A stretch of 64,000 nucleotides of DNA from Dictyostelium discoideum (Eukaryota). Location: positions 2,592,001 through 2,656,000 of the forward strand of contig CM000152.2 in NCBI GenBank assembly GCA_000004695.1, read 5' to 3'. Below are positions 17,748 through 53,863 of this stretch, piece after piece. The notes beneath the pieces are model-generated. The model ran no database searches. It had not been told where the DNA came from and saw nothing but the letters and a program-made list of their open reading frames with translations. Position 1 is the first letter of the stretch. Every line of letters begins with the position of its first letter. Position numbers and translations under genes: made by a program.

Positions 17748-21314
<3,567 letters not shown>

Positions 21315-21813: not shown

Positions 21814-24800
21814 ATGGGATCCCAAAAGATTTTCTTGATTTTGTTTACAATTTTATTGTGTTTGAGAACTATAAAATCTATTTCAGTTGAAGAATGTAAT
21901 TATTTTTTTTTTTAATATTTAAAAAAAAAAAGGAGTTATAAATATTAATATTATGTTTAGCAAATTGTATTAGTTTTTTAGCCAACCAACTTGGAATAAA
22001 TTTTTTTACCTCAATAAATTCTTCAAGCCAAATTCAATATTGTTATTATACATCTTATATTACATGTGACTCTAATGAGAGTATAACTGAATTAAATCTA
22101 TCTCAAAATTCATCTTCTAATATAATAGGTTCAGACCTATTTTTATGTTTTCCAAATTTAAATTCATTGTTTGTATTTATTTTTTATTTTTAATTTTATT
22201 TTTATTTTTTATTTTTATTTTTATTTTTTATTTTTATTTTTTTTTTATTTTTGCTTTTTTTTATTTTTTTTTTTTATCTTTTATCAATTTATTAATTTTG
22301 TGTTTTCAAATAGATATCTTAAAAAAGTAATACTCAATAGTGATATTTTATATACATTACCTTCAACTGTAAAGAAATTACATTTGGAAAGATGCACTGG
22401 TTTAACCAATGTAACTCAAAAATTACCGCCATATGATTATTTGTATGTATTGTTGAAAAAATAAAAAAAAAAAAAAGAAAAAGTGTTTTTTTTTACTAAT
22501 TATTTAAATATTAGAGAGATAATTACCTTTTCATCAGATACTTTCATATTTTATATGTCATGGATTCAAAATATTAAAGAGTTTTATTTTTATAATGTTG
22601 AATTTCCATATACTTTAAATACAACTTTTGTTACAGATTTTGAAAATATTGAAAATTATACCAGACTAGATTACATGGGCTTCTCAACAAATGAAATACC
22701 TGATCTTACTGGTTTTTCATGTGGTGTGTAAGTAAACAAATTATTTAATAAATAAAAATAATAATAGTTTGTTATTGATAAAAATAATAATAATAATAAA
22801 AATAAAAATATAGTGATATGCTTTTAGGTTTTGCTTTTAAAAGTTCATTTGAAAAATTATTAACATTTAGTGGTGTTAAAGATATGATGATTTGGTACTA
22901 TACAAGACCAATAGATATACCAACACAATTATTACAATTAAGTGGAATGCAAAATTTGTAAGTTGTAACTATATTTTCTAAAATTTAACAATAATAATTT
23001 AAAATTTTACTGATTCTTTTTAATGATAAAGGCAAATTAATATAAATTTTAAAGTACCATCTTATCAATATGATTTCTCAAATTTAACATCATTATCAAT
23101 GCTTCAACTTATGGATAAATCAACCAATACAAATAACTTGGGAAGAAATGGTTTACCAATTTCAAAATTACCACCAAATTTAAAAGAATTTTATTATGCA
23201 GGAATTTTAAAGAAATCACCATCAATGGAAATTTTTAAAGATGTTAAAATTGTTGATTTCTCATTATGTGAAATAAATGATACATTAAAAGATGTTTTCT
23301 TACCAACAACTTATTCAACAAATAATTTGTAACTATTTTCATTCATTAAATTATTTTTTACTTTTATTTTTTTTTAAACAGTTACTAATAGTTGTTTTTA
23401 TTTTTATATATATTATATTAATAGATATTTTGAAAACAATAAATTATATGGTTTAATTCCTCAATCATACTGTAATGTAATTACAGATTTTAGCGATAAT
23501 ACTTTAACTGGTGAAATTCCAAAGTAATTATTTTCTTTTTTATAAAAAATATTAGAATTAATTTATATATAGAAAAAAAAAAAAAAAAAAACTAACAATT
23601 TTTTAAAATAATTATAGTTGTTTCACGTGTTATTTTAATGATACTGATTCTTTAGTGAAAAATAAATTTGCAAATAATAAATTCACAAATTATGCGACCC
23701 AAGGTCCTTGTAGTATGTATTTTTAAAATATAATAATTTTTAAAATTTTAATTTTATATATATACTAACTATAATTTAATTTTTAGCAACAATGAAACCA
23801 AATTTATTAGTTAATGCTACAACTTTAATATTATATGGTGAATCTTTAGGTTTTAATGGTAGACTTATAAAAACAAATGCAACAGGTTCAACAACTTTTA
23901 CAATGATACAACCAAGTAGTTATTTTACATTAAATTTAAGAACAACAAATATATTTGCAAAAGGTGCAAGATCATTAATACTCACTTGGACAGTTGGTAG
24001 CGAAATTAGAAAATTCACATTACCAATTGTTAAACAAGCACCTGTACCTGCAAATATTACTTACAGTGGTATTGCATCGAATCAAGTCGAAATAAATGGT
24101 GAATTCTTTACATACAACATTACAGATGTTTCGGTTTTAGTAAGTGGTAATGATTGTCTTGTAACTTATACAACATTCAACCAAATCAAATGTACATTAA
24201 CAAAAGGTTTAAATGAAAGTATTGTATTACCAGTTGATTTTATTTTTGTTGACATTATTGTAGGTGGAAACAAAACAAGTGTTTATGTTAGATTACAAGA
24301 AACATCATATATAAACAATAAAAAGTGTAACCCTGAACTATGTACTTCCAATACATATTGTAATTTAAATGATGGAATTTGCTATCCACATTTAGATTGT
24401 ATTTCAGATTGTACAATAAACAATGCAGTTTGTAATCATGTTAGTGGGTTGTGTGATTGTAGGAATAATTGTAGTAATGCAGGTTTATGCAATGGTGTAG
24501 ATGGTACTTGTTCGTGTAATTCTGGTAGATTATTCAACGATTGCAGTGGTATTCAATGTACAGGTACACCAATTTGTTCAAATCATGGTACTTGTGATAC
24601 CTCAAACGGAAAATGTAAATGTGAATCAATTATATGGGTTGGCAATGCATGTCAAGATACTCAACATTATGTAAATGCAATTACACCATCAAATGAAAAT
24701 GGTGGTAAAGTTTTATTATTTGGTTGGTTTGGTTCAACTCATTCAAATGCATCAGTAATAATTGGCTCACAAGAATGTAATATAACTTCAATAAATCAAA

Positions 24801-26034
24801 CTGTAATAGAATGTGATATTGGTCATGGAAAAGGAATAGTACCAACATATGTTTCCCAAAATTCTTTGGAGTGGTCAAGTCAGACAATGTATAAATATTT
24901 ATCAATACAATTGAAATGTCCAAATGATTGTACAAGTAATTTAAATGGTAATTGTGATACAACTAAAGGTGTTTGTGTTTGTATTGGTAACTTTACAGGT
25001 ATTGATTGTGGTTCATATCCAACTAGTAATCCATCAGATGGAAGTGGAAGTGGACCAAAAACAAATACAACAGTGGATGATAATACTGGTAGTGGTTCAA
25101 TTAACAATGGTAATGTAGATTACCAAGTATCAATCACTTCACTATTAGAAATTGGATTTGATGGTAGCACAATTAAAGAATACAACCTAACTAAATTATG
25201 GGAAAAGCCAAGCAATATTAACAATCCAAACCCTAATATACATACTTTTACACAAACAATTGAAGGTAATTGTACAATCACTTCAACAATTGAAGAAGTT
25301 TCAAAAGATAAAGAATTTTCATTTGCTGGTATTGACTTTACAGTTTCAGGAGGTTCATTAAAATTATCAGTTCAAATTTTAAATTATCCATATAGTTCAA
25401 CATTAAATACATTACAACTAAGAATGAAATCATCAGCTTTAAATTATTCAACACCAAAATGTGGTAGTACTCAAGATGATGAAAAAGTTTCAATAGATTC
25501 AAATGGATTCACAAATGAAAATGATAATTTAAACTATTTAACAATCACAAAGAATAATAGAAAACTTTATGGTCGTTTCCTTTCAAAAATGTTATCAGAT
25601 GGTAGATCAACATTTACAACAAGTAACATCATTTCAACAACTGATGTCGATGTTACTGTTGCATTAAATTTACCACATTGCGATATCTGTTTATTAGATC
25701 CTGGTAAGTTTAATTTTTATAATTGATTTTTACATTTTTTTTTTTTTTTTTTTTTTCTTTTATTCCCTCAAATAACTGACTTTTTTTTTTTTTCATTTCC
25801 AAATCAGATTTTTCAATTCTTTTAAATTCAAATGTAAAAGATAATGAAGAAACATGTGAAGATGAAACTAAAGATACAAAAATATCAACCACAACAATTA
25901 TTGCGATCTGTGTATCAGTGGGGGGTGCTGCAATTATAGGTGCTGCTGGTTATCTTTTGTATAGAAAAAAAATTGTTGAAGTTTTACCATCTTCAATGTC
26001 AAATTCAAAATTAAGAAAACTAAATGCAAAATAG
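21814..26034 (+). CDS. Type I membrane glycoprotein, copy A. Domains in order: signal peptide, plant-type LRRs (LxGxIP), an IPT-like region, EGF/tenascin-like Cys-rich repeats, a single TM segment, and a short tail. There are 10 exons: 21814..21895, 21961..22168, 22314..22442, 22515..22727, 22814..22957, 23032..23328, 23425..23523, 23618..23712, 23787..25703 and 25808..26034.
   Basis: Exon structure was derived by parallel alignment with copy B; every junction was phase-checked. The signal peptide is MGSQKIFLILFTILLCLRTIKS. LRR exons contain CFPNLNSL, YTLPSTVKKLHLERCTGLTNVTQKLPPYDYL and NKLYGLIPQSYC...NTLTGEIPK. The big exon is track ORF 23792..25726, with repeated C-x-C-x5-G-x2-C motifs (CNPELCTSNTYC...CDCRNNCSNAGLCNGVDGTCSC...CSNHGTCDTSNGKCKC). 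The last exon encodes ...TTIIAICVSVGGAAIIGAAGYLLYRKK (TM) and then a stop. The donor of intron 2 is a weak GTTTGT. Confidence 0.75.
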
Positions 26035-26432
26035 TAACTCAATGTATTAATAATTTAATAAACTTTATAAAAATAAAAAATTAAAAATTTGTTAAGGGTT
26101 TTTAAATGATTCTTTTTTTTTTTTTTTTGTTTGGTGATATGTTTTTTTTTATTCTAAAAAAAAAAAAAAGTTGCAAGATATTTTTTTATTTTTCCTGAAA
26201 AGTTGAAAGATTTTTTTTTTTTTTTTTTTTTTTTTTGATAAAAATTGATGAATTTTTAGATCATCTTTTTATAAAAATATCCATTTTTCTAAGTCTCGAA
26301 AAAAAAAGTTTGTAATTATGTAAATGTTGATTGCATTCTTTGATTTTTTTATTTTTTTTTTTTATTTTTTAAATATTAAGTTTTTTAATATTAAATTAAC
26401 CTATTCATTTATTTATTTTTTTATTTAAATAT

Positions 26433-26483
<51 letters not shown>

Positions 26484-26494
26484 TATTAATTGAA

Positions 26495-26545
<51 letters not shown>

Positions 26546-26548
<3 letters not shown>

Positions 26549-27487
26549 AAATTTTCAAAGATTTTCTCTATTTTCATTTTAATTCTTTTATGCATTGGTA
26601 CTTTAAAATCAATTTCCATAGATGAATGTAAGTAAATAATTTTTATTTTTTTATTATAATTTTTAAAAAAAAAACTAATTATTTATTATAATATAGATAA
26701 TTGTTTGGGTTTAGTTCTAACCCAATTTGGAATGAATAATTTTATTCCAAATAGGGTCAATGCTACTGGACAAATCGAATATTGTCTTCCTTTTAACATA
26801 ATTACCTGTGACACAAATGAAAGTGTAATAGGTTTGAATTTATTTCAATTTCTTACATATGGCGTTATAAGTGCAAGTTCTTTCACATGCTTTCCAAATT
26901 TAAAATCATTGTAATTTTTTTTTTTTTATATATTTTTTTTTTATTTTTTATTTCTTATTAATTTCCATTTTTTTTTTCAGATCACTTCAACAAACAATAC
27001 TTAGTCCAGATTTTTTTTATACTCTACCTTCAACATTAAAAAGTTTAGATTTAGATGGTTGTTCTGGTGCTACAAAAATAACATCAAAACTTCCTCCATT
27101 TGACTATTTGTGTGTATAAAAAAAAATATATATATACATAAAAAAAAATCCAATTTTTTACTAATCTTAATACTATTATTTTATTTTGTTTTAATTTGTT
27201 TTATTTTATTATATTTAGCAAAGTTATTTCTATTTCTTCAGATACATTCACTGTTTATTTATCATGGATTCAAAATATTAAATATTTTCATTTTTCAAAT
27301 TATGATTCCAATTATCCAACTATGAATTCAACATATATAACAGATAATGAAAACATTGAAAACTATACAACAATTGAAATTTTTAAATTTTCAACCAATT
27401 TAATACCGGATATTACTGACTTCTCATTTTCATTGGTGTATGAAAAAATAATATTATATTATAAACTATTATTAATATTATTATTAA

Positions 27488-27585
<98 letters not shown>

Positions 27586-30500
27586 TTATTATTTATAGTG
27601 AAATGGTTTTAGGAAATTCTTTTCAAAGTTCATCATTAAATAATTTAACAACCTTTTCAAATGTTATTGATTTTAAGATTTGGTATTATACAAAACCTAT
27701 AGATATACCAATACAATTACTACAATTAAGTAGATTACAAAATTTGTAAGTTGTTTAGGAAAAAATAAAAAAATAAAAAAAATAATATAATTTTACTTTA
27801 CTAATAAAAAAAAAAATAATAAAAATAAAAAAAGACAAATTAATATAAATTTTAAAGTACCATCTTATCAATATGATTTCTCAAATTTAACATCATTATC
27901 AATACTTCAACTTATGGATGAATCATCAAATAATAATAACCTTGGAAGAAATGGTTTCCCAATTTCAAAATTACCACCAAACTTAAATGAATTTTATTAT
28001 GGAGGAATTTTAAAGAAATTGCCATCAATGGAAATTTTTAAAGATATTAAAATTGTTGATTTCTCATTTGGCCAAATCAATGATACATTAAAAGATGTTT
28101 TCTTACCAACAACATATGGAATTAATTATTTGTAATTATTATTTACTTATTTATTATTTATAATTTATCCTAATCATAAATTATTAATTATTATTTTTTC
28201 TTTTCTATAATATAGTTATTTTCAAAGTAATACATTATATGGTACAATACCTCAATCTTATTGTAATTTTATAACGGATTTTAGTACAAATACTTTAACT
28301 GGTGAAATTCCAAAGTAATTGTTTTTAAAAATTTAAAAAAAAAAAAAAAAAAAAAACAATATTAATATTTATTCAAACTTTTCCTTATTCTTCATTTTAT
28401 ATTTTAGTTGTTTTACCTGTTATTTTGGTGATTCTGAAATTGGTTTAAAAAATTTATTTGCAAATAATAAATTCACAAATTATGATACCCAAAACCTATG
28501 TAGTATGTTTTTTTATTAAATTAAACTTGTCTAATTTTTAACAATTATTAATTATGTATTTAATTTTTAGCGTCAATGAAACCAAATTTATTAGTTAATG
28601 CTACAACTTTAATATTATATGGTGAATCTTTAGGTTTTAATGGTAAACTTATAAAAACAAATGCAACAGGTTCGACAACTTTTACAATGATTCAACCAAG
28701 TAGTTATTTTACATTAAATTTAAGAACAACAAATATATTTGCAAAAGGTGCAAGATCATTAATACTCACTTGGACAGTTGGTAGCGAAATTAGAAAATTC
28801 ACATTACCAATTGTTAAACAAGCACCTGTACCTGCAAATATTACTTACAGTGGTATTGCATCAAATCAAGTTGAAATAAATGGTGAATTCTTTACATATA
28901 ATATTCAAGATGTTTTAGTTTTAGTTAGTGGTATTGATTGTCTTGTCACTTCAACAACATTCAACCAAATCAAATGTAAATTAACAAAAGGTTTAAATGA
29001 AAGTATTGTATTACCAGTTGATTTTATTTTTGTTGACATTATTGCAGGTGGAAACAAAACAAGTGTTTATGTTAGATTACAAGAAACATCATATATAAAC
29101 AATAAAAAGTGTAACCCTGAACTATGTACTTCCAATACATATTGTAATTTAAATGATGGAATTTGTTATCCATATTTAGATTGCTTTTCAGATTGTACAA
29201 TAAACAATGCATTTTGTAATCATGGTAATGGTTTGTGTGATTGTAGAAATAATTGTAGTAATGCAGGTTTATGCAATGGTGTAGATGGTACTTGTTCGTG
29301 TAATCCCGATAGATTATTCAACGATTGCAGTGGTATTCAATGTCCAGGTACACCAATTTGTTCAAATCATGGTACTTGTGATACCTCAAATGGAAAATGT
29401 AAATGTGAATCAATTAAATGGGTTGGCAATGCATGTCAAGATACTCAACATTATGTAAATGCAATTACACCATCAAATGAAAATGGTGGTAAAGTTTTAT
29501 TATTTGGTTGGTTTGGTTCAACTCATTCAAATGCATCAGTAATAATTGGCTCACAAGAATGTAATATAACTTCAATAAATCAAACTGTAATAGAATGTGA
29601 TATTGGTCATGGAAAAGGAATAGTACCATCATATGTATATCAAAATTCTTTGGAATGGTCAAGTCAGACAATGTATAAATATTTATCAACACAATTAAAA
29701 TGTCCAAATGATTGTACAAGTAATTTAAATGGTAATTGTGATACAACAAAAGGAGTTTGTGTTTGTATTGGTAACTTTACAGGTATTGATTGTGGTTCAT
29801 ATCCAACTAGTAATCCATCAGATGGAAGTGGAAGTGGACCAAAAACAAATACAACAGTGGATGATAATACTGGTAGTGGTTCAATTAACAATGGTAATGT
29901 AGATTACCAAGTATCAATCACTTCACTATTAGAAATTGGATTTGATGGTAGCACAATTAAAGAATACAACCTAACTAAATTATGGGAAAAGCCAAGCAAT
30001 ATTAACAATCCAAACCCTAATATTCATACTTTTACACAAACAATTGAAGGTAATTGTACAATCACTTCAACAATTGAAGAAGTTTCAAAAGATAAAAAAT
30101 TTTCATTTGCTGGTATTGATTTTACAGTTTCAGGAGGTTCATTAAAATTATCAGTTCAAATTTTAAATTATCCATATAGTTCAACATTAAATACATTACA
30201 ACTAAGAATGAAATCATCAGCTTTAAATTATTCAACACCAAAATGTGGTAGTACTCAAGATGATGAAAAAGTTTCAATAGATTCAAATGGATTCACAAAT
30301 GAAAATGATAATTTAAACTATTTAACAATCACAAAGAATAATAGAAAACTTTATGGTCGTTTCCTTTCAAAAATGTTATCAGATGGTAGATCAACATTTA
30401 CAACAAGTAACATCATTTCGACAACTGATGTCGATGTTACTGTTGCATTAAATTTACCACATTGCGATATCTGTTTATTAGATCCTGGTAAGTTTAATTT

Positions 30501-30792
30501 TAATAATTGATTTTTATTCCCTCAAATAACTGACTTTTTTTTTTTATTTTTCATTTCCAAATCAGATTTTTCAATTCTTTTAAATTCAAATGTAAAAGAT
30601 AATGAAGAAACATGTGAAGATGAAACTAAAGATACAAAAATATCAACCACAACAATTATTGCGATCTGTGTATCAGTGGGGGGTGCTGCAATTATAGGTG
30701 CTGCTGGTTATCTTTTGTATAGAAAAAAGTTTGTTGAAGTTTTACCATCCTCAAAGTCAAATTCAAAATTAAAAAAACTAAATGTGAAATAA
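26546..30792 (+). CDS. Type I membrane glycoprotein, copy B, a tandem paralog of copy A. There are 10 exons: 26546..26627, 26697..26910, 26981..27109, 27219..27437, 27599..27745, 27835..28131, 28216..28314, 28408..28502, 28571..30487 and 30566..30792.
   Basis: The same exon/intron architecture and phases as copy A. The large exon (track ORF 28576..30510) is ~95% identical to A at the protein level, while the LRR exons are much more diverged. Intron 4 (27438..27598) is dominated by (ATT)n. The stop is TAA at 30790. Confidence 0.75.
27455..27595. repeat. (ATT)n microsatellite in the intron of the LRR-EGF gene, copy B.
   Basis: Direct reading; it yields the polyL stretch in the tail of track ORF 27196..27612. 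Confidence 0.9.
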
Positions 30793-31085
30793 GATTAAAA
30801 TAAAATATTATAATAAATTTAAAGACTATTACAAAAAAAGATTTACTTTTTTAACATCTCTTTTATATATCAAGGTCAGATAGGCTCATATAAGAGTGCT
30901 AAGATTTAACTAAGATTTAAAATACTTTGTTTTTCTTGTTAAGTTTTTGAATTTTTCAGAAGGGATAAGGTTAGATTGATTGTTTTTTTTTTATTTTTTG
31001 TTTAGAGGCAATCCACTTTATATTTTTGTTTGGTTAATCTTTTTAAAATGAAAAGAGCAATATTTGGTGAAAAATATCACAAATC

Positions 31086-31255
31086 GCCGCGATAGTATAG
31101 TGGTATTACTTCAGATTGGGAACCTTTGACCATAATTAAGAATTCTTTTATAGATCAAAAAAAAAATTTAGATTTAACATGCAAAGCAATATTATTATAA
31201 CTTTTTTAATTCAGGTGTGTACCCGTGAGATAGGGAATTGAACCTTTGATCAAGA
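31086..31255. pseudogene. tRNA-His-derived fragments. A plus-strand 5' half (31086..~31130, GCCGCGATAGTATAGTGGTATTACTTCAGATTGGG...) carries the same ~40-bp upstream flank as the intact gene. A minus-orientation 3'-half-like piece lies at ~31225..31255 (GGGAATTGAACCTTTGATCAAGAGGTC).
   Basis: Direct comparison shows 31047..31100 (AAAATGAAAAGAGCAAT-ATTTGGTGAAAAATATCACAAATCGCCGCGATAGTATAGTGG) matches the reverse complement of 31331..31390, which is the intact tRNA-His 5' end plus its upstream flank. The fragment lacks a T arm and cannot fold as a tRNA. Confidence 0.5.
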
Positions 31256-31273
31256 GGTCAAATTTTTAAAAAG

Positions 31274-31344
31274 TGCCGCGACCTGGAATCGAACCAGGGT
31301 CAACAGAGCCACAATCTGATGTACTACCACTATACTATCACGGC
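31274..31344 (-). tRNA. tRNA-His (anticodon GUG).
   Basis: The minus-strand sequence GCCGTGATAGTATAGTGGTAGTACATCAGATTGTGGCTCTGTTGACCCTGGTTCGATTCCAGGTCGCGGCA folds as a cloverleaf. It has a 7-bp acceptor stem (one G-U), a D arm, an anticodon loop CAGATTGTGGCT with GTG at positions 34-36, and a T arm GGTTCGATTCC. Confidence 0.85.
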
Positions 31345-40054: not shown

Positions 40055-40481
40055 TAGTATTTATAATTATATGAATTTAAAATTCATAATAATTAATTTA
40101 TAGATTTCAAGATTAAAGTTAAAATTAAACATTTAAGACAATATTTTTCCCCAAACAAAAATAAAATCCATTCTTTTAATTTTTTTTTTTCAAACAGCAA
40201 ATTCTGAAATTTCTTATATAATCTTTTTGAAAAATAAAAATAAATTAAAAGTTATTTATTTGTAATATATTGAGATAGGTATTTTTTTTTTTTTTGTTGT
40301 ATTTTTATTATTTTTATTTAAGTTTCAACAAATGATTTATAATTTAAAAACCAATATGGATAAAATGTTTAATTTACAATTTGTTTTTTAATTTTTCCTA
40401 AAGCTTTGAAAATACTATTTTTTTTTGAATTGGAATTGAAAATACTATCAATATCGCTATTAAAAATTAAATTTTCAACAA

Positions 40482-40553
40482 GTTTCGATAGCTCAGTGGA
40501 AGAGCAAGCGACTGCAAATCGTTAGGTCGCCAGTTCAATCCTGGTTCGGAACT
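40482..40553 (+). tRNA. tRNA-Cys (anticodon GCA).
   Basis: The sequence GTTTCGATAGCTCAGTGGAAGAGCAAGCGACTGCAAATCGTTAGGTCGCCAGTTCAATCCTGGTTCGGAAC folds as a cloverleaf. It has a 7-bp acceptor stem, D-arm GCTC/GAGC, anticodon loop CTGCAAA (GCA at 34-36), and a T-loop TTCAATC. Confidence 0.85.
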
Positions 40554-40666
40554 TTCATTTTTAATTTTTTATTTTGTTTTAAATGATTGCCCCCTCTGTT
40601 TCCTCTCGATTTATCATATTTTCATTAAAATCTGACCATATTTAAAAGAGATTCAGTCATTTTAAA

Positions 40667-40687
40667 GTAAAATTATTATAAAAAAAA
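40667..40687. repeat. 5' target-site duplication of the TRE3-type element: GTAAAATTATTATAAAAAAA(A).
   Basis: An identical 20-mer recurs at 45936..45955, immediately after the element's poly(A). Confidence 0.8.
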
Positions 40688-43600
40688 CCGTACCGCGATC
40701 AAGAGGATACAAGATAGACGTGAAAAGTAATTCATCCTTTTCTATCCTTAATCTCGGTCAATTTTAACCAATCTTTCAAAAAAAATCACCAATCCACCAC
40801 GATCTACAGATCTAACTTACCAAATCGCCGATTCAAAGGAATCCCATCGAGATGAATTCCTACGCAGACGCGGCTAAAATGGCCAACCCCTCCACCCATA
40901 TGGACGAGGCATCAGAGAACTTCATTAAGGAATTCTCCACAAAAACAGCAGAGATAAAGGAGACCTACCCCAAATTATCAATAGGCCTCAAAGACATCTC
41001 CAAATACTGCGAGACCATATTGAACATGACTGCGCTCTCAACCTACGAGAAAAACAACGGATTCTACCCAATTACACTCGAATTCCCCAAAATGGATCTC
41101 ATGGGGTTAGAAGAAATGAGAAAAACACTCTCAAACTACGATATCCCAATCGACAAGATATACATAGGCAAAGGAACTAGAAAAATGATCCACCTGATGA
41201 TTAAAAACGAACAATCTCTCCTAAATATCATTAGAGATAGAAGCAAATTGGGAACCTTCATCACCTCCAGTAGAGACTACCACGTCCTCACAGGAAGAGT
41301 AAGAATTCCAAGAGAAAAGGCAGGAATAGTGGACGCCCTCATCAAAACTGCCTTTGCAGAAGAAATACCCTATGCAATATACCATACTATATACTCCACC
41401 GACCACCTCCTAGTATTCGGTCTAATAGAATGCAAAATAGGCGATCAAATGAAATCTGGCCAACACAATACAGAAATCGCCAACTTTACCATCAGAACGG
41501 CCACCAAAACCTACTCCTCACAAAAGAAAAATAAGAAAGTAGAGTCAAACAACACGGAAGAACCATTAGAAGATGAGATGACAGATGATCCTCCCAACAC
41601 CCAAAACAGGATAGCAATCAAATCCTCTCAACCAAAACCACAACAACAAACAAACAACCCAGCAAAAAATCAGTCTGATAAACAATCAACCCAAGAGAAA
41701 AAAGCCCAATCAAAAAAGCCCTCTCAACCTCTTCCCCCCAAAAACCAAGCAGAATCTCAATCTGTCAAACCCACCACAACCACTACCACAACATCCAACG
41801 CCATCCAAAAAGACAATGCCAACAAAACGAGCACTAACATCCATTCATCCTCGGAAAACAGAGAGAAGACACCAAACATCCCTCCATCACATAAACGCAA
41901 GAACGAGGAAATCCACTCAAACAACGAGGTCACCCAACTCTCACCAACAATAAACAGAAGCAACCCTTACATCCCATCCACCCCTAAGACACCTGTCAAA
42001 AATGAAAGGAAAGGAATCATTGAGAGCTTCATAGAGAGTATCTACCCTTCACCATCCAAACCGCAGCTATACGACTCCCAAGAGGAGATCGATATCATCT
42101 CATAATGGTAGTAATCAAAATCAACCAATGGAATGTCAGAGGTTGGGGCACTGACACCTCCTTCAAAAACAAAACAGACTTTATCAAATCCCAATCCCCC
42201 CCAAACTCATTGGCACTAACCATAGTCAATGAACTCAACGCCGACGCAACACAAGCACACCAGCTATTTCCTGGCTCCATCATTAGCGCAACCAACAGAG
42301 GCAACGGAATAGGAATACTAAACCACAACAACCAAAACATAAAACTCTCACCAATATTCATAATAGAAGGTAGACTAATAATATCAGACATTCTAATAAA
42401 AGATACCACAACGAGAATCTTGGCCATATACGCCCCGGCCCAACCTGATAAAAGAAAAACACTAGCTTCAACACTAAACAAACACTTCAACAACCAATAC
42501 CACAACCTAACGTCTAACCCTAATAAAAACATCGACATCATAGCAGGCGACTTCAACTGTTTAGACTTCAATGACAATCACACATCAAATGATGACCAAG
42601 GCAACTTGACAACACAATCCCCAGATGAGATGGCCACAGTAATCGAAGCCATCAGAATTTCAAATAACCTAATGGATATGGACCAACTAAATAAAAGACC
42701 CACCTTCTCAAGAACGATACACAACACAAACAATAACCTCACAAGAATCTTGGAAAGGAGACTAGACAGAATATACCTTAACAATAGCATAATCAACTAC
42801 AGCCAATTATACTTAAGGAACCTAATCCCCCCAAAAATTAACAACATACCTCTATCAGATCACAACTTCCTATCAACCACCTTCACTCTACCCAACATAC
42901 AGATGAACATGCGCAGATGGAGATTAAAAAATCCTCAATCCTCTCAAGCATAATGCTTAAGAAAATAGACTTCCTACTTAACGATTATTCAAGGGAGTTG
43001 TCATCCAACCATAACTCTATTTCCTTCTCTCAACTCAACAGCTTACTGAACAAAATAAAACAACTATACACAGAATTTCAAAAACAAAACGACTACAACA
43101 ATAAGGCAAACATCAAAAATCTAATCTCCCTACTAGAGACAGAATTTAAAGACCAAGCCTTCGCAACCCTTTCAGCAATAAATGAATCTAAAAGAAGAGA
43201 AGAACAACTTAAACAAGAATTGAACAACTATTGCGAAGAAACCTCACTCAAGTACATCTCCGCGAGAATCAAGAAAAGACATAATGATTTCACCATCAAC
43301 GCAGTAAAAGATGCACAAGGTAGAACAATTAACAAACAGGAATTGATCGAAGAAGAATACGTAAAATATTACTCAAATCTTTATGACTACAAAGAAGATG
43401 ACCCACCATCTCATTATGAAATGTTGGAAAATTGGACAGTGACCAGGGACTCAACATGGGACAACCTTGAAAACGAATTCACATCACAAGAGATCCTAGA
43501 AGTAATAAAACAATTGAACCCACACAAATCTCCAGGCCCAGATGGAATTCCAAACTTATTCTACATAACACACAAAGAAAAACTAGCTCCAATACTGGCC

Positions 43601-45935
43601 TCAGCATTCAACGACACTCTAAGAAATCCTCATCTAATTAGCAAAAATTACAAAGAAGGCCTCATTATCACGATACCTAAAAAGGGAGACCCCGAACTAA
43701 TCAAAAACAGAAGACCAATTACACTGGCCAACTGTATATATAAAATCCACTCAAAACTAATAAACAATAGAATAATCCCAATACTAACGAAAGTGATCAA
43801 CCACAATCAAAAAGGTTTCGTACCAGGCAGATTCATTCTAGATAATATCATATCAATGAACGAATTAATCAACTATTGTAATGATAAAAGAATAAACGGA
43901 ATAATTACACTATATGATTTCGAAAAAGCTTTTGACTCGATCTCACACGGTTCAATACTCAGATCACTACAACACATCAACATTCCAACCAATATAATCA
44001 ACCTGATAATGAATCTACTCACCAAATCTGAAGCAAGAATTGAAATTAATGGTAGAACTACTATACCCTTTGAGATCAAAAGAGGAGTTAAACAAGGAGA
44101 TCCACTATCACCCACCCTGTTCGTCCTTGTAATAGAGGCTTTAGCTAGAAAAATTTTACAAGATGACCGAATTACTGGCCTTCCTCTAAACAACAGCAAC
44201 CACAGAGAGAAATTCCAAAGCTTTGCAGACGACTCGGCTTCAATGGTCCCAGACTCTCAACAACTTGAATTAGTACTACAACACTTCAATTCATTTTGCA
44301 AAGCCACTTCCTCAAAACTAAACATCGACAAATCTTCATCAATTCTTATAGGCAACCCAGACAATACCAACCAAAGAATTCCAATATCTACAAATCCAGA
44401 AAGATACTTGGGATACTTCTTCACAGGCAAAGGGATAACAAGAAAAATGCCAGAAATATTAAACACAATAAGATCATCCTTAGTACTATGGAAAACCACT
44501 GACTCAACAATCAAAACCAAAACCAACATCCTCAAAGCATTCGCACTCTCTAAATTAACCTACTATTCATATGTAGAGAACTTTAAGGAAGAGGAATTAA
44601 ACCAAATCAATAAATTAGTCGAATGGTTTTTATCGGCACCAAACAACAAAAATGCTAGTGGATTTCAAGTTATTAATTTAATGAGAACCAAAAGAGCAAG
44701 ATACCCACTAAAAGTAGGAGGCTGGAACATTTGGAATATAGAATTGAGACAACTGGCGCAGAAACTTTGGATCATAAACCAGTTCATCCTAGCACTAGAA
44801 ACCAAACAAACAAACTCATCTCATCACAAAAGCTGGGAATATCAGATCCAAAAAAACAAATTCACATCCAGATACCTAAAAGAAAACTTAGACGAATGGA
44901 ACAAAATAAGAATAAAAAAAGCAATCTTCAACAATAATCTCACATCCATAAAAAACGAAAATGGACAACCACTTTCACTGGCAGAATGGTATACCACAAT
45001 TCAAGACCAAAATCCAACCATCCCTAAAACGGAATTCCAATCATCTCTAAACTTAAGAGGCTACAGCTATAATCAACTCTTCAACAATATACTGAAGATA
45101 AAAGACCCTAAAACAAGAGACACAATGTTTAGATTCCATGCCAGATGCCTTCCAATAAACTACCTTCACAACAAACAATGCCCACTCTGCAAAGAAGATA
45201 TGAGCAAAGACCCATACGGTCACCTGTTCTTCTCATGCAAGAAAACAAAACAATTCATAAAAATAAATAAACTCAAAAATTTCATCTTTATTACCACAGG
45301 CAAAGGTAAAAACTGGCACCATACAAGAATTAGGCAAAATAACAATTTCATTAATAGAATAACTCCAAAATTATCACCGACAGCCAAAAAAGATCAAGAA
45401 GTGAATGCAGATTACGCCAACCACAGATTCCACAAAGAATACTTTGAATGGAACTATAAAGCAATAGACTATGATCTAACCAGATCATTCGCATATAGAA
45501 ACCTAATGGCCCTTATCCTCCACAACATTTGGATTTGGATTTGCAATCAAATATACAGTGAAGATCCTTTAACAGATGAATCACTATCATACAGCTCCCT
45601 TCTAAAGAAATGGCACAAATTGGCCACTCTAGAATACATCAAAAAAGCAAAAGATCTGAAAAACTTATCAGCAAAAGACCATAATAACTTCAAAGATCCT
45701 AAGATCCTTCTCACTTCAACGATCAAGCTAAGAAAAACAACAGCTAATTACTATTGTATTCCAGAATCATCTCTCCCAAATATTATATCTTTTGATCAAT
45801 TCATATGATTAAAATAACCCTTCAGCTTAAATGATAAGCCTTTAAATAAATATTAAATAAAACTCGTATTAACACAGATGGACATATATCAATCTTGTTA
45901 ATCCAATATTAAAAAAAAAAAAAAAAAAAAAAAAA
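40688..45935 (+). mobile_element. Full-length non-LTR (LINE-like) retrotransposon of the tRNA-targeted TRE3 type (size and position fit TRE3-A/Tdd-3). It is 5,248 bp. ORF1 is 40852..42105. ORF2 is split: the APE endonuclease part is 42105..42953 and the RT plus C-terminal Cys-rich zinc-finger part is 42917..45808. It ends in a 3' poly(A) at 45911..45935.
   Basis: The element is distinctly GC-richer than its surroundings. ORF2a has an AP-endonuclease fold (INQWNVRGW...IAGDFNC...SDH). ORF2b has RT motifs (RPITLANCIYKIHSKLI, LYDFEKAFDSISH, the FADD motif in QSFADDSASMV, and C-terminal CPLCKEDMS...HLFFSC). The ORF1 stop and ORF2 start overlap as TAATG at 42103-42107. It was inserted 134 bp downstream of tRNA-Cys in the same orientation. 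It is flanked by a 20-bp direct repeat. Confidence 0.7.

Positions 45936-49845: not shown

Positions 49846-53863
<4,018 letters not shown>

Follow-up and report, generated by a model that had tools for sequence, protein, structure and literature searches.

A tandem pair of ComC-like genes in Dictyostelium discoideum with a 3' part probably homogenised by recurrent gene conversion

The stretch of DNA analysed here (the window) comprises 64,000 nucleotides (nt) of Dictyostelium discoideum (assembly GCA_000004695.1, contig CM000152.2, positions 2,592,001 to 2,656,000), with the properties of Dictyostelium DNA: its G+C content is approximately 20%, the introns are short and rich in AT, and the spacers are rich in homopolymers. 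It harbors two related genes, A and B, which follow each other head to tail as direct repeats at a distance of 4,732 bp. The models of both genes were reconstructed from the DNA sequence, and the spliced exons were translated. Copy A encodes a protein of 1,136 amino acids (aa) and copy B one of 1,141 aa, each from ten exons with a stop-free translation, and all introns of both copies are of the GT-AG type. The exon lengths differ in exons 2, 4 and 5 by multiples of three, and the intron phases are therefore identical. The initial annotation, which had described a tandem duplicate of a ten-exon gene with identical phases and a length difference of 6 nt in exon 2 (208 versus 214 nt), is borne out by the rebuilt models, and the exon-4 peptides quoted there for both copies were found exactly as given. 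A third copy was not detected when copy A was searched against the whole window with tblastn. The features of the pair are as follows.

21814-26034 (+), copy A, exons 21814-21895, 21961-22168, 22314-22442, 22515-22727, 22814-22957, 23032-23328, 23425-23523, 23618-23712, 23787-25703 and 25808-26034 (82, 208, 129, 213, 144, 297, 99, 95, 1917 and 227 nt)
26546-30792 (+), copy B, exons 26546-26627, 26697-26910, 26981-27109, 27219-27437, 27599-27745, 27835-28131, 28216-28314, 28408-28502, 28571-30487 and 30566-30792 (82, 214, 129, 219, 147, 297, 99, 95, 1917 and 227 nt)
26035-26545 (+), spacer of 511 bp between A and B with the 3' end of A and the promoter of B, not homogenised, flanks at background similarity
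21814-22957 (+), exons 1-5 and introns 1-4 of copy A, encoding the signal peptide and the N-terminal part of the leucine-rich repeats (LRR), which escapes homogenisation
26546-27745 (+), exons 1-5 and introns 1-4 of copy B, the non-homogenised counterpart

In exact protein look-ups, the product of copy B was identical to DDB_G0279859 of D. discoideum AX4 (Q54W81, XP_641511.1, EAL67543.1) and that of copy A to KAM9949516.1, encoded in a newer D. discoideum assembly. Among the results of the homology search and the look-ups, an AX4 GenBank or RefSeq protein was found for B only. We infer that copy A is absent from the original AX4 annotation or handled differently there; its apparent lack of a protein record is of relevance to Dictyostelium workers.

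Both gene products appear to be type I membrane proteins of the ComC family. According to the translation, the proteins start with a hydrophobic leader (MGSQKIFLILFTILLCLRTIKS) and have a single hydrophobic span near the C-terminus (IIAICVSVGGAAIIGAAGYLLY), after which RKK and a tail of about 20 more residues complete the sequence. The proteins contain 46 to 48 cysteines each, 34 of them in the exon-9 product, as well as 25 and 21 N-x-S/T sequons, respectively. The Pfam search returned the following domains.

LRR_ComC (PF24141), 81.1 bits in A and 86.5 bits in B, curated cut-off 27, spanning aa 89-385 of A
Beta-sand_ComC_2nd (PF24143), 32.3 bits in A and 35.3 bits in B, curated cut-off 27
TIG, 28.8 bits in A and 24.5 bits in B, curated cut-off 20.9, a single TIG region
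ComC_SSD (PF22933, supersandwich domain), 190.3 bits in A and 188.3 bits in B, cut-off 24, profile positions 2-222 of 222 matched
EGF_2, 20.2 bits in A and 23.4 bits in B, cut-off 22.1, passed by B only

The prediction of an LRR, EGF-like and IPT (TIG) type I membrane gene is in line with these matches and with the translation. The first beta-sandwich of ComC (Beta-sand_ComC_1st, PF24142) was not matched at E<=1 in either protein; a strand-rich stretch (aa 424-512) is located where it would be expected, and the domain is present in a 30%-identical relative (P0008). In a library clustered at 50% identity, the ComC-like family comprises 402 representatives at E<=1e-10. A, B and all their orthologues share a single cluster, and no further relative exceeds 37% identity. 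The next-closest ComC-like relatives (P0008 and P0009, encoded by ACTFIZ_001631 and 001632 of D. cf. discoideum, 30-34% identical) are adjacent genes as well; tandem pairs may thus be common in this family. No sequence relative of the two proteins was found among PDB chains at E<=0.01. An AlphaFold2 model of the orthologue P0001, calculated from a 10-sequence alignment, reached a mean predicted local distance difference test score (pLDDT) of 48 and a predicted template modelling score of 0.35, and was confident in the LRR alone (aa 60-260, pLDDT 70-90), where short strands and helices alternate. The N-terminal 423 aa of copy A used as a query yielded nothing at E<=1e-5 despite existing full-length orthologues, which is taken as a limit of the word-indexed search tool and not as biology.

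The similarity between A and B is distributed very unevenly along the gene. For each exon, the nucleotide identity and the synonymous (dS) and non-synonymous (dN) divergence were determined, the latter two as simple Nei-Gojobori/Jukes-Cantor estimates.

Exon 1, 67.9% identity, dS 0.75, dN 0.35
Exon 2, 61.4% identity, dS 1.07, dN 0.45
Exon 3, 67.4% identity, dS 0.90, dN 0.33
Exon 4, 70.0% identity, dS 0.96, dN 0.29
Exon 5, 75.0% identity, dS 0.40, dN 0.28
Exon 6, 90.9% identity, dS 0.157, dN 0.082
Exon 7, 82.8% identity, dS 0.59, dN 0.12
Exon 8, 76.3% identity, dS 0.47, dN 0.25
Exon 9, 97.5% identity, dS 0.066, dN 0.015
Exon 10, 96.9% identity, dS 0.061, dN 0.023

Taken by region, dS amounts to 0.82 in exons 1-5 (dN 0.34) and to 0.063 in exons 9-10. 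Raw differences number 249 among 777 aligned nt in exons 1-5, but only 54 among 2,139 nt in the last two exons, 9 and 10 (Fisher p = 3e-103); this confirms a non-uniform divergence of the exons, and the per-exon identities agree with the view that the N-terminal LRR exons are far more divergent than exon 9. The ratio dN/dS stays below 1 in each exon (0.21-0.70; 0.3-0.7 in exons 1-5). Exon 9 is 1,917 nt long in both copies and nearly identical, as had been noted, with 48 nt and 21 aa differences; the protein identity is 96.7% instead of the approximately 95% given before. Intron 9 is homogenised as well (98.6% identity in aligned columns, one 30-nt indel in a T-run aside). Introns 1-8 are 63-78% identical in aligned columns; together with both flanks the range is 49-78%, which corresponds to the AT-rich background, and the 3' flank past the stop codon is also at background (approximately 41% similarity).

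The longest identical run between the copies measures 299 nt in exon 9 versus 21 nt in exons 1-5, and a run of this length in exon 9 has a probability of 0.014 if the differences were spread uniformly. Divergence within exon 9 amounts to 4.1% in the first 847 nt (23787-24633) and 1.2% in the remainder, and falls to 0.55% in the last 733 nt (24971-25703; p = 5e-5 for the fall from 4.1%). The majority of the exon-9 amino acid differences (15 of 21) are located at aa 513-715, in the second beta-sandwich and the EGF stretch, and only one in the 214-aa supersandwich domain. A clustering of these differences near cysteines, as claimed in the initial annotation, was not found: 6 of 21 are within two residues of a cysteine, with 24% expected (p = 0.39).

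The locus was compared with that of two further D. discoideum isolates, two isolates assigned to "cf. discoideum", two D. citrinum, D. dimigraforme and D. firmibasis. Seven syntenic loci were compared, with exon models obtained by threading the annotated protein through its DNA. The ten-exon structure is common to all of them, and the gene order (an LSM gene, a gene for a 1,191-1,314-aa protein, A, then B) is conserved in all genomes. The dS values between A and B in exons 9-10 are low wherever both copies were compared.

D. discoideum AX4, dS 0.063
D. discoideum isolate FIR, dS 0.105
cf. discoideum FIZ, dS 0.094
D. dimigraforme, dS 0.061
D. firmibasis, dS 0.020

Between species, orthologues of exons 9-10 differ by a dS of 0.38-0.70, which is above the values of 0.02-0.10 between A and B within these five genomes. 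The opposite applies to exons 1-5, where the dS between paralogues (0.71-1.12) exceeds every orthologue distance. Neighbor-joining trees (200 bootstraps) reflect this. With exons 1-5, all A copies are separated from all B copies (100% bootstrap), with the species order retained within each clade. With exons 9-10, copies from one genome cluster together in five genomes that carry both, and A pairs with B at 100% in AX4, 99% in FIZ, and 100% in both D. dimigraforme and D. firmibasis. Since the A and B clades of exons 1-5 are trans-specific, the duplication is older than the split of D. discoideum and D. firmibasis, which is estimated at 50-100 million years (PMC12745789). AX4 and FIR orthologues show a dS of 0.13-0.14 in exons 9-10, about three times the value in exons 1-5 (0.046-0.050), probably because conversion carries paralogue differences into what appear to be orthologue comparisons.

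In both D. citrinum genomes (loci L005 and L007), an A-type gene only is found at the locus. Downstream of the remaining gene, at a distance of about 200 nt, one of them (L007:11949-12078) carries a decayed exon-9 fragment of approximately 130 nt (aa 740-790), and copy B seems to have been lost in the citrinum clade through deletion and decay. The idea that the single D. citrinum gene is a fusion of the 5' part of A with the 3' part of B, formed by unequal crossover, was dropped in view of this relic downstream in the second strain.

The limits of the homogenised regions could be narrowed down in the different genomes, and the regions in the window are as follows.

23787-25970 (+), homogenised block of copy A, running from exon 9 through intron 9 to nt 163 of exon 10
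28571-30728 (+), homogenised block of copy B, likewise running from exon 9 through intron 9 to nt 163 of exon 10
23032-23328 (+), exon 6 of copy A, an older homogenisation island without conservation in the adjoining introns 5 and 6
27835-28131 (+), exon 6 of copy B, counterpart of the older conversion island
29272-30048 (+) as minimum and 29230-30726 as maximum, tract of A sequence in copy B of the AX4 lineage, from painting of diagnostic sites

On its 5' side, the block ends at the intron 8/exon 9 junction in D. dimigraforme and in the discoideum clade. In AX4, the 3' limit is located approximately 60 nt before the stop codon, and all eight differences in exon 10 are found from 25971 on. In D. 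firmibasis the block reaches as far 5' as the intron 5/exon 6 junction and also takes in introns 6-9 (87-97% A/B identity). Exon 6 shows an A/B dS of 0.16-0.18 in AX4, FIR and FIZ versus 0.45 in D. dimigraforme.

For the painting of the AX4 copies, 64 sites with a fixed A/B difference in three other discoideum-clade genomes were used. Copy A is A-type at 61 of the 64 sites. Copy B is B-type at all diagnostic sites but one up to aa 642, carries the A base at 23 of 23 sites at aa 657-915, and returns to the B type at aa 1116 and 1131. The tract at aa 657-915 of AX4 B is best read from these sites as an A-to-B conversion specific to the AX4 lineage. As a result, the AX4 B protein has the island KLWEKPSNINNPNPNIHTFTQTIEG in place of NLWRKSANINYSNENIHEFSQKIVEN at the start of the supersandwich domain. 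The B-specific island (NLWRKSANINYSNENIHEFSQKIVEN) is kept by the B copies of the other discoideum-clade genomes and is still recognizable in D. dimigraforme; in D. firmibasis B it was lost independently.

The LRR part evolves faster at the protein level. Orthologue dN/dS is approximately 0.3-0.4 in this part vs approximately 0.15 in exons 9-10, and dN is two- to threefold higher in exons 1-5 than in exons 9-10, with dS being similar (A of AX4 compared to A of D. firmibasis: dN 0.256 versus 0.093, dS 0.75 versus 0.63). In windows of 40 codons, pooled over five orthologue pairs per lineage, dN/dS ranges from 0.4 to 0.9 in the first approximately 100 residues, from 0.15 to 0.5 in the rest of the LRR and from 0.03 to 0.46 in the 3' part. 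None of these 40-codon windows reaches 1, the maximum being 0.89 at aa 41-77 of copy A, in the N-terminal cap. Of the proposed "fast-evolving LRR exons" under "diversifying change", the faster protein evolution holds and the diversifying change is not demonstrated, as no exon or window reaches a dN/dS of 1. The rates appear to fit relaxed constraint, possibly with a few selected sites, and the age of the duplication accounts for the greater part of the divergence between A and B in exons 1-5. The mismatch density between AX4 and FIR is 4.2% over the two genes, compared to 3.5% in the flank upstream and 1.2% in that downstream, on the basis of few diverged strains. A hyper-polymorphic locus of the tgr type, considered as a candidate, was not supported by the comparison of the pair with the upstream flank.

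The donor of intron 2 in copy A (22169-22174, (+)) is GTTTGT, with a T at position +3, and the equivalent donor of copy B (26911) is GTAATT; both sequences are as given in the initial annotation. In the A orthologues the splice position of intron 2 is the same throughout, and the donor reads GTGTGT (FIR, FIY and both D. citrinum), GTATAT (FIZ), GTAAGT (D. dimigraforme) or GTAAAC (D. firmibasis). The GTTTGT form is, judged from these orthologues, specific to the AX4 lineage. Among 126 donors of these genes, position +3 is A in 119, G in five and T in two. Two further peculiarities of copy A in AX4 are found close by. Three adjacent substitutions specific to the lineage (N100K/E101K/A102V; 22314-22325, aa 100-102) are located at the start of exon 3, right after the intron with the unusual donor, and copy A lacks one exon-2 codon relative to all other A copies.

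Taken together, these data are best explained by an ancient tandem duplicate of the ComC family, the 3' part of which has been repeatedly overwritten within genomes by interlocus gene conversion (probability approximately 0.9). Non-reciprocal copying between A and B would overwrite the 3' part again and again within each genome. The seemingly "frozen" 3' part would not be frozen at all; it would change at a normal rate between species and be homogenised independently in each lineage. In the discoideum clade, the conversion tracts would extend over exon 9 with intron 9 and over the larger part of exon 10, with an older event over exon 6; in D. firmibasis, they would extend over exons 6-10 with introns 6-9. 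Exons 1-5, encoding the signal peptide and the N-terminal LRR part, would have escaped conversion in every genome examined and retained the old A and B types. No other family member exceeds 37% identity, and a third donor is not to be expected. Exon 9, which is long and not interrupted by introns, presumably supplies hundreds of perfectly homologous bases, which would sustain recombinational repair. Exons 1-5 are short (82-219 nt), and the introns between them differ in length, carry microsatellites and are unalignable; these short, diverged 5' exons and fast-changing AT-rich introns might be below the homology required, and the partition would reinforce itself. Selection for two different LRR heads may add to this homology threshold, or replace it, in sparing the 5' part. 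The process is well known and the family is known as well, so that the locus is a new instance without a new mechanism.

Several points weigh against this interpretation. The conversion events are deduced from present-day sequences of seven strains or species, and none was observed directly. The dS in exons 1-5 is near saturation and comes from a simple Nei-Gojobori/Jukes-Cantor estimate. The AX4 tract is not clean, since a B-like Pro668, which FIR has as well, is located between two converted patches, and 19 differences have accumulated in 24488-25703; the tract may represent two events or one old event. A signature of GC-biased conversion is absent, as third positions of the converted block are not enriched in GC (GC at fourfold sites of the AX4 copies 0.06 in exons 9-10 versus 0.10-0.11 in exons 1-5). 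Finally, the present data are compatible with either a homology threshold or selection as the cause of the spared 5' part.

The initial annotation had left a choice between gene conversion and strong constraint. Purifying selection on the EGF, TIG and supersandwich part, which would preserve exon 9 while the LRR exons drift, agrees with the lower orthologue dN/dS of the 3' part. Protein constraint cannot, however, reduce dS 13-fold (from 0.82 to 0.063) or homogenise intron 9, and under this explanation neither the between-species dS of 0.38-0.70 in exon 9 nor the grouping of A and B by genome would be expected. Constraint alone can practically be dismissed, because synonymous sites and intron 9 are homogenised and exon 9 has diverged normally between species; of the two proposals, conversion is supported by dS, intron 9 and the trees, and constraint fails on the dS of 0.066 in exon 9 versus 0.75-1.07 in exons 1-4. 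Repeated unequal crossing-over, or independent recent partial duplications, might also generate similar 3' parts. Direct repeats 4.7 kb apart can exchange, and the single copy in D. citrinum demonstrates that the copy number changes. Unequal exchange in a two-copy array would nevertheless yield one or three copies, whereas six genomes hold exactly two, with trans-specific A and B 5' halves. Re-duplication would homogenise whole genes including exons 1-5 and the spacer, which is never seen, and the 130-nt exon-9 relic of D. citrinum points to deletion and decay rather than to a clean A/B fusion, all of which renders this origin very improbable.

More weight, albeit still little, is given to explanations that involve function. 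Positive diversifying selection on the ligand-binding surface of the LRR could drive the A/B difference and exclude conversion from the 5' part. The two- to threefold higher dN of the LRR among orthologues and the value of 0.89 at aa 41-77 of A are compatible with it, as is the sparing of exons 1-5 in six of six two-copy genomes, even where tracts extend further in the 5' direction (D. firmibasis). It is unlikely, however, given that dN/dS does not reach 1 in any exon or window, that the A/B dS in exons 1-5 is saturated and the age of the duplication suffices to explain the difference there, and that the AX4/FIR mismatch density in the locus (4.2%) is near that of the upstream flank (3.5%). 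Slightly less probable still is a partition maintained by selection, in which different LRR heads with two ligand specificities share a stalk and supersandwich module, acting for example as a pair or with the same docking partner. The B island at aa 888-915 of the supersandwich domain has been kept across species, but is overwritten in D. firmibasis and in the AX4/AX2 lineage; it would then be a patch of functional specificity, and replacing it would alter social behaviour in the laboratory strain. It is likewise doubtful, to about the same degree as diversifying selection, that copy A is decaying or non-functional in the AX4 lineage owing to its GTTTGT donor, the pair being reduced to one gene and a conversion donor. 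A T at position +3 is rare (2 of 126) and derived in AX4, and splicing at a GTATTT donor found 4 nt further on (22173) would change the reading frame and lead into a stop codon. Copy A of AX4 also has the 3-nt deletion in exon 2 and 14 non-synonymous versus 7 synonymous lineage-specific changes in exons 1-8, those at aa 100-102 among them, and an AX4 protein record turned up for B only. On the other hand, the reading frame of copy A is intact over ten exons, a later annotation predicts the same protein (KAM9949516.1), the copy A orthologues are intact in all other genomes examined, and the non-synonymous excess is small and resembles that of AX4 B (9:6) and FIR B (9:4).

The order of the domains in A and B is that of the ComC family, with a signal peptide, a ComC-type LRR, a beta-sandwich, EGF-like repeats, the supersandwich domain, a single transmembrane span and a short tail. 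A and B differ from the family in being distant paralogues (no other representative of the 50% clustering exceeds 37% identity) and in the first beta-sandwich model remaining undetected at E<=1. The gene comC is said, in work attributed to Kibler and colleagues (Dev Biol, 2003), to take part in a cell-adhesion/communication pathway with lagC and lagD; a literature search for comC and lagC together gave no match, and mentions of comC were confined to tables. A role of A and B in cell-cell signalling or adhesion during development might be deduced from the family resemblance, and a cell-cell recognition or adhesion locus is plausible in view of the ComC architecture. In two publications, comC is described as encoding EGF domains, a signal peptide and a transmembrane domain, as restricted to group 4 dictyostelids, and as causing aberrant aggregation when mutated (PMC4931340, PMC2873529). 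The literature search for DDB_G0279859 returned no mutant, expression or binding data, and no paper on this gene or on gene conversion in the ComC-like family.

Partial concerted evolution of tandem duplicates is exemplified by the primate gamma-globin genes. In frog ATP1A1 paralogues, according to a preprint, conversion homogenises most of the gene and selected differences persist (bioRxiv 10.1101/2020.08.04.234435). The present pair resembles such cases in that paralogues within a genome are closest, trees conflict, introns are included in the tracts and paralogue-specific islands are present. In contrast to the frog and globin genes, the spared part is an entire multi-exon N-terminal domain. 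The boundary coincides with an intron-exon junction in five of six genomes, the pattern has persisted for long, i.e. since before the split of D. discoideum and D. firmibasis, and the pair is without a known adaptive difference between the copies. TgrB1 and TgrC1 of D. discoideum, adjacent genes for polymorphic type I surface proteins with an IPT/TIG fold that act in social development, show similarities to A and B. However, A and B have the ComC arrangement of LRR, EGF and supersandwich domain with a single TIG region instead of the multi-TIG Tgr architecture. They are in tandem in the same orientation and are homogenised rather than diversified by conversion. Judged by its architecture, the locus is not an allorecognition locus of the Tgr type. 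Clusters of plant LRR receptor and resistance genes share the LxGxIP-type motif (YGLIPQSY...LTGEIP, exon 7), the exchange between tandem copies and the faster LRR. A and B lack a kinase or NB-ARC domain, and, unlike plant clusters, in which the LRRs are typically under demonstrable positive selection, have a dN/dS below 1 in all windows.

The locus is a well-resolved natural case in which conversion keeps one part of a receptor gene identical over a very long time and leaves another domain free to differ. This has practical consequences, as short reads or knock-out constructs on exon 9 or 10 cannot tell A from B, and orthologue comparisons in the 3' part are distorted by conversion, as with the threefold dS between AX4 and FIR. 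In addition, copy B of AX4 differs from that of wild isolates by the converted tract in the supersandwich domain.

Several other features are located in the vicinity of the pair or elsewhere in the window. A perfect (TAT)42 microsatellite (27467-27593) lies within intron 4 of copy B, and a perfect (TAA)43 array (21002-21130) is found upstream of copy A, approximately 180 nt before the stop codon of the preceding gene. A tRNA-His gene is encoded 480 nt downstream of copy B (31273-31344, (-)), and about 150 nt before it, on the opposite strand, a truncated tRNA-His-like 5' half (approximately 31083-31125, (+)) was recognized by eye, which was not called by ARAGORN. A tRNA-Cys gene (40481-40554, (+)) is followed within 300 nt by open reading frames of a non-LTR (long terminal repeat) retrotransposon (40852-42105, 42105-42953 and 42917-45808), the last of which matches the reverse transcriptase domain RVT_1 (E = 8e-34). 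In its arrangement it is similar to the TRE elements of D. discoideum, which target tRNA genes, and a rise in G+C to 0.33-0.37 coincides with the region (40481-45808). A second G+C-richer stretch with a strong strand skew contains an open reading frame of 1,213 aa (49846-53487, (-)), for which no Pfam match was obtained at E<=0.001.

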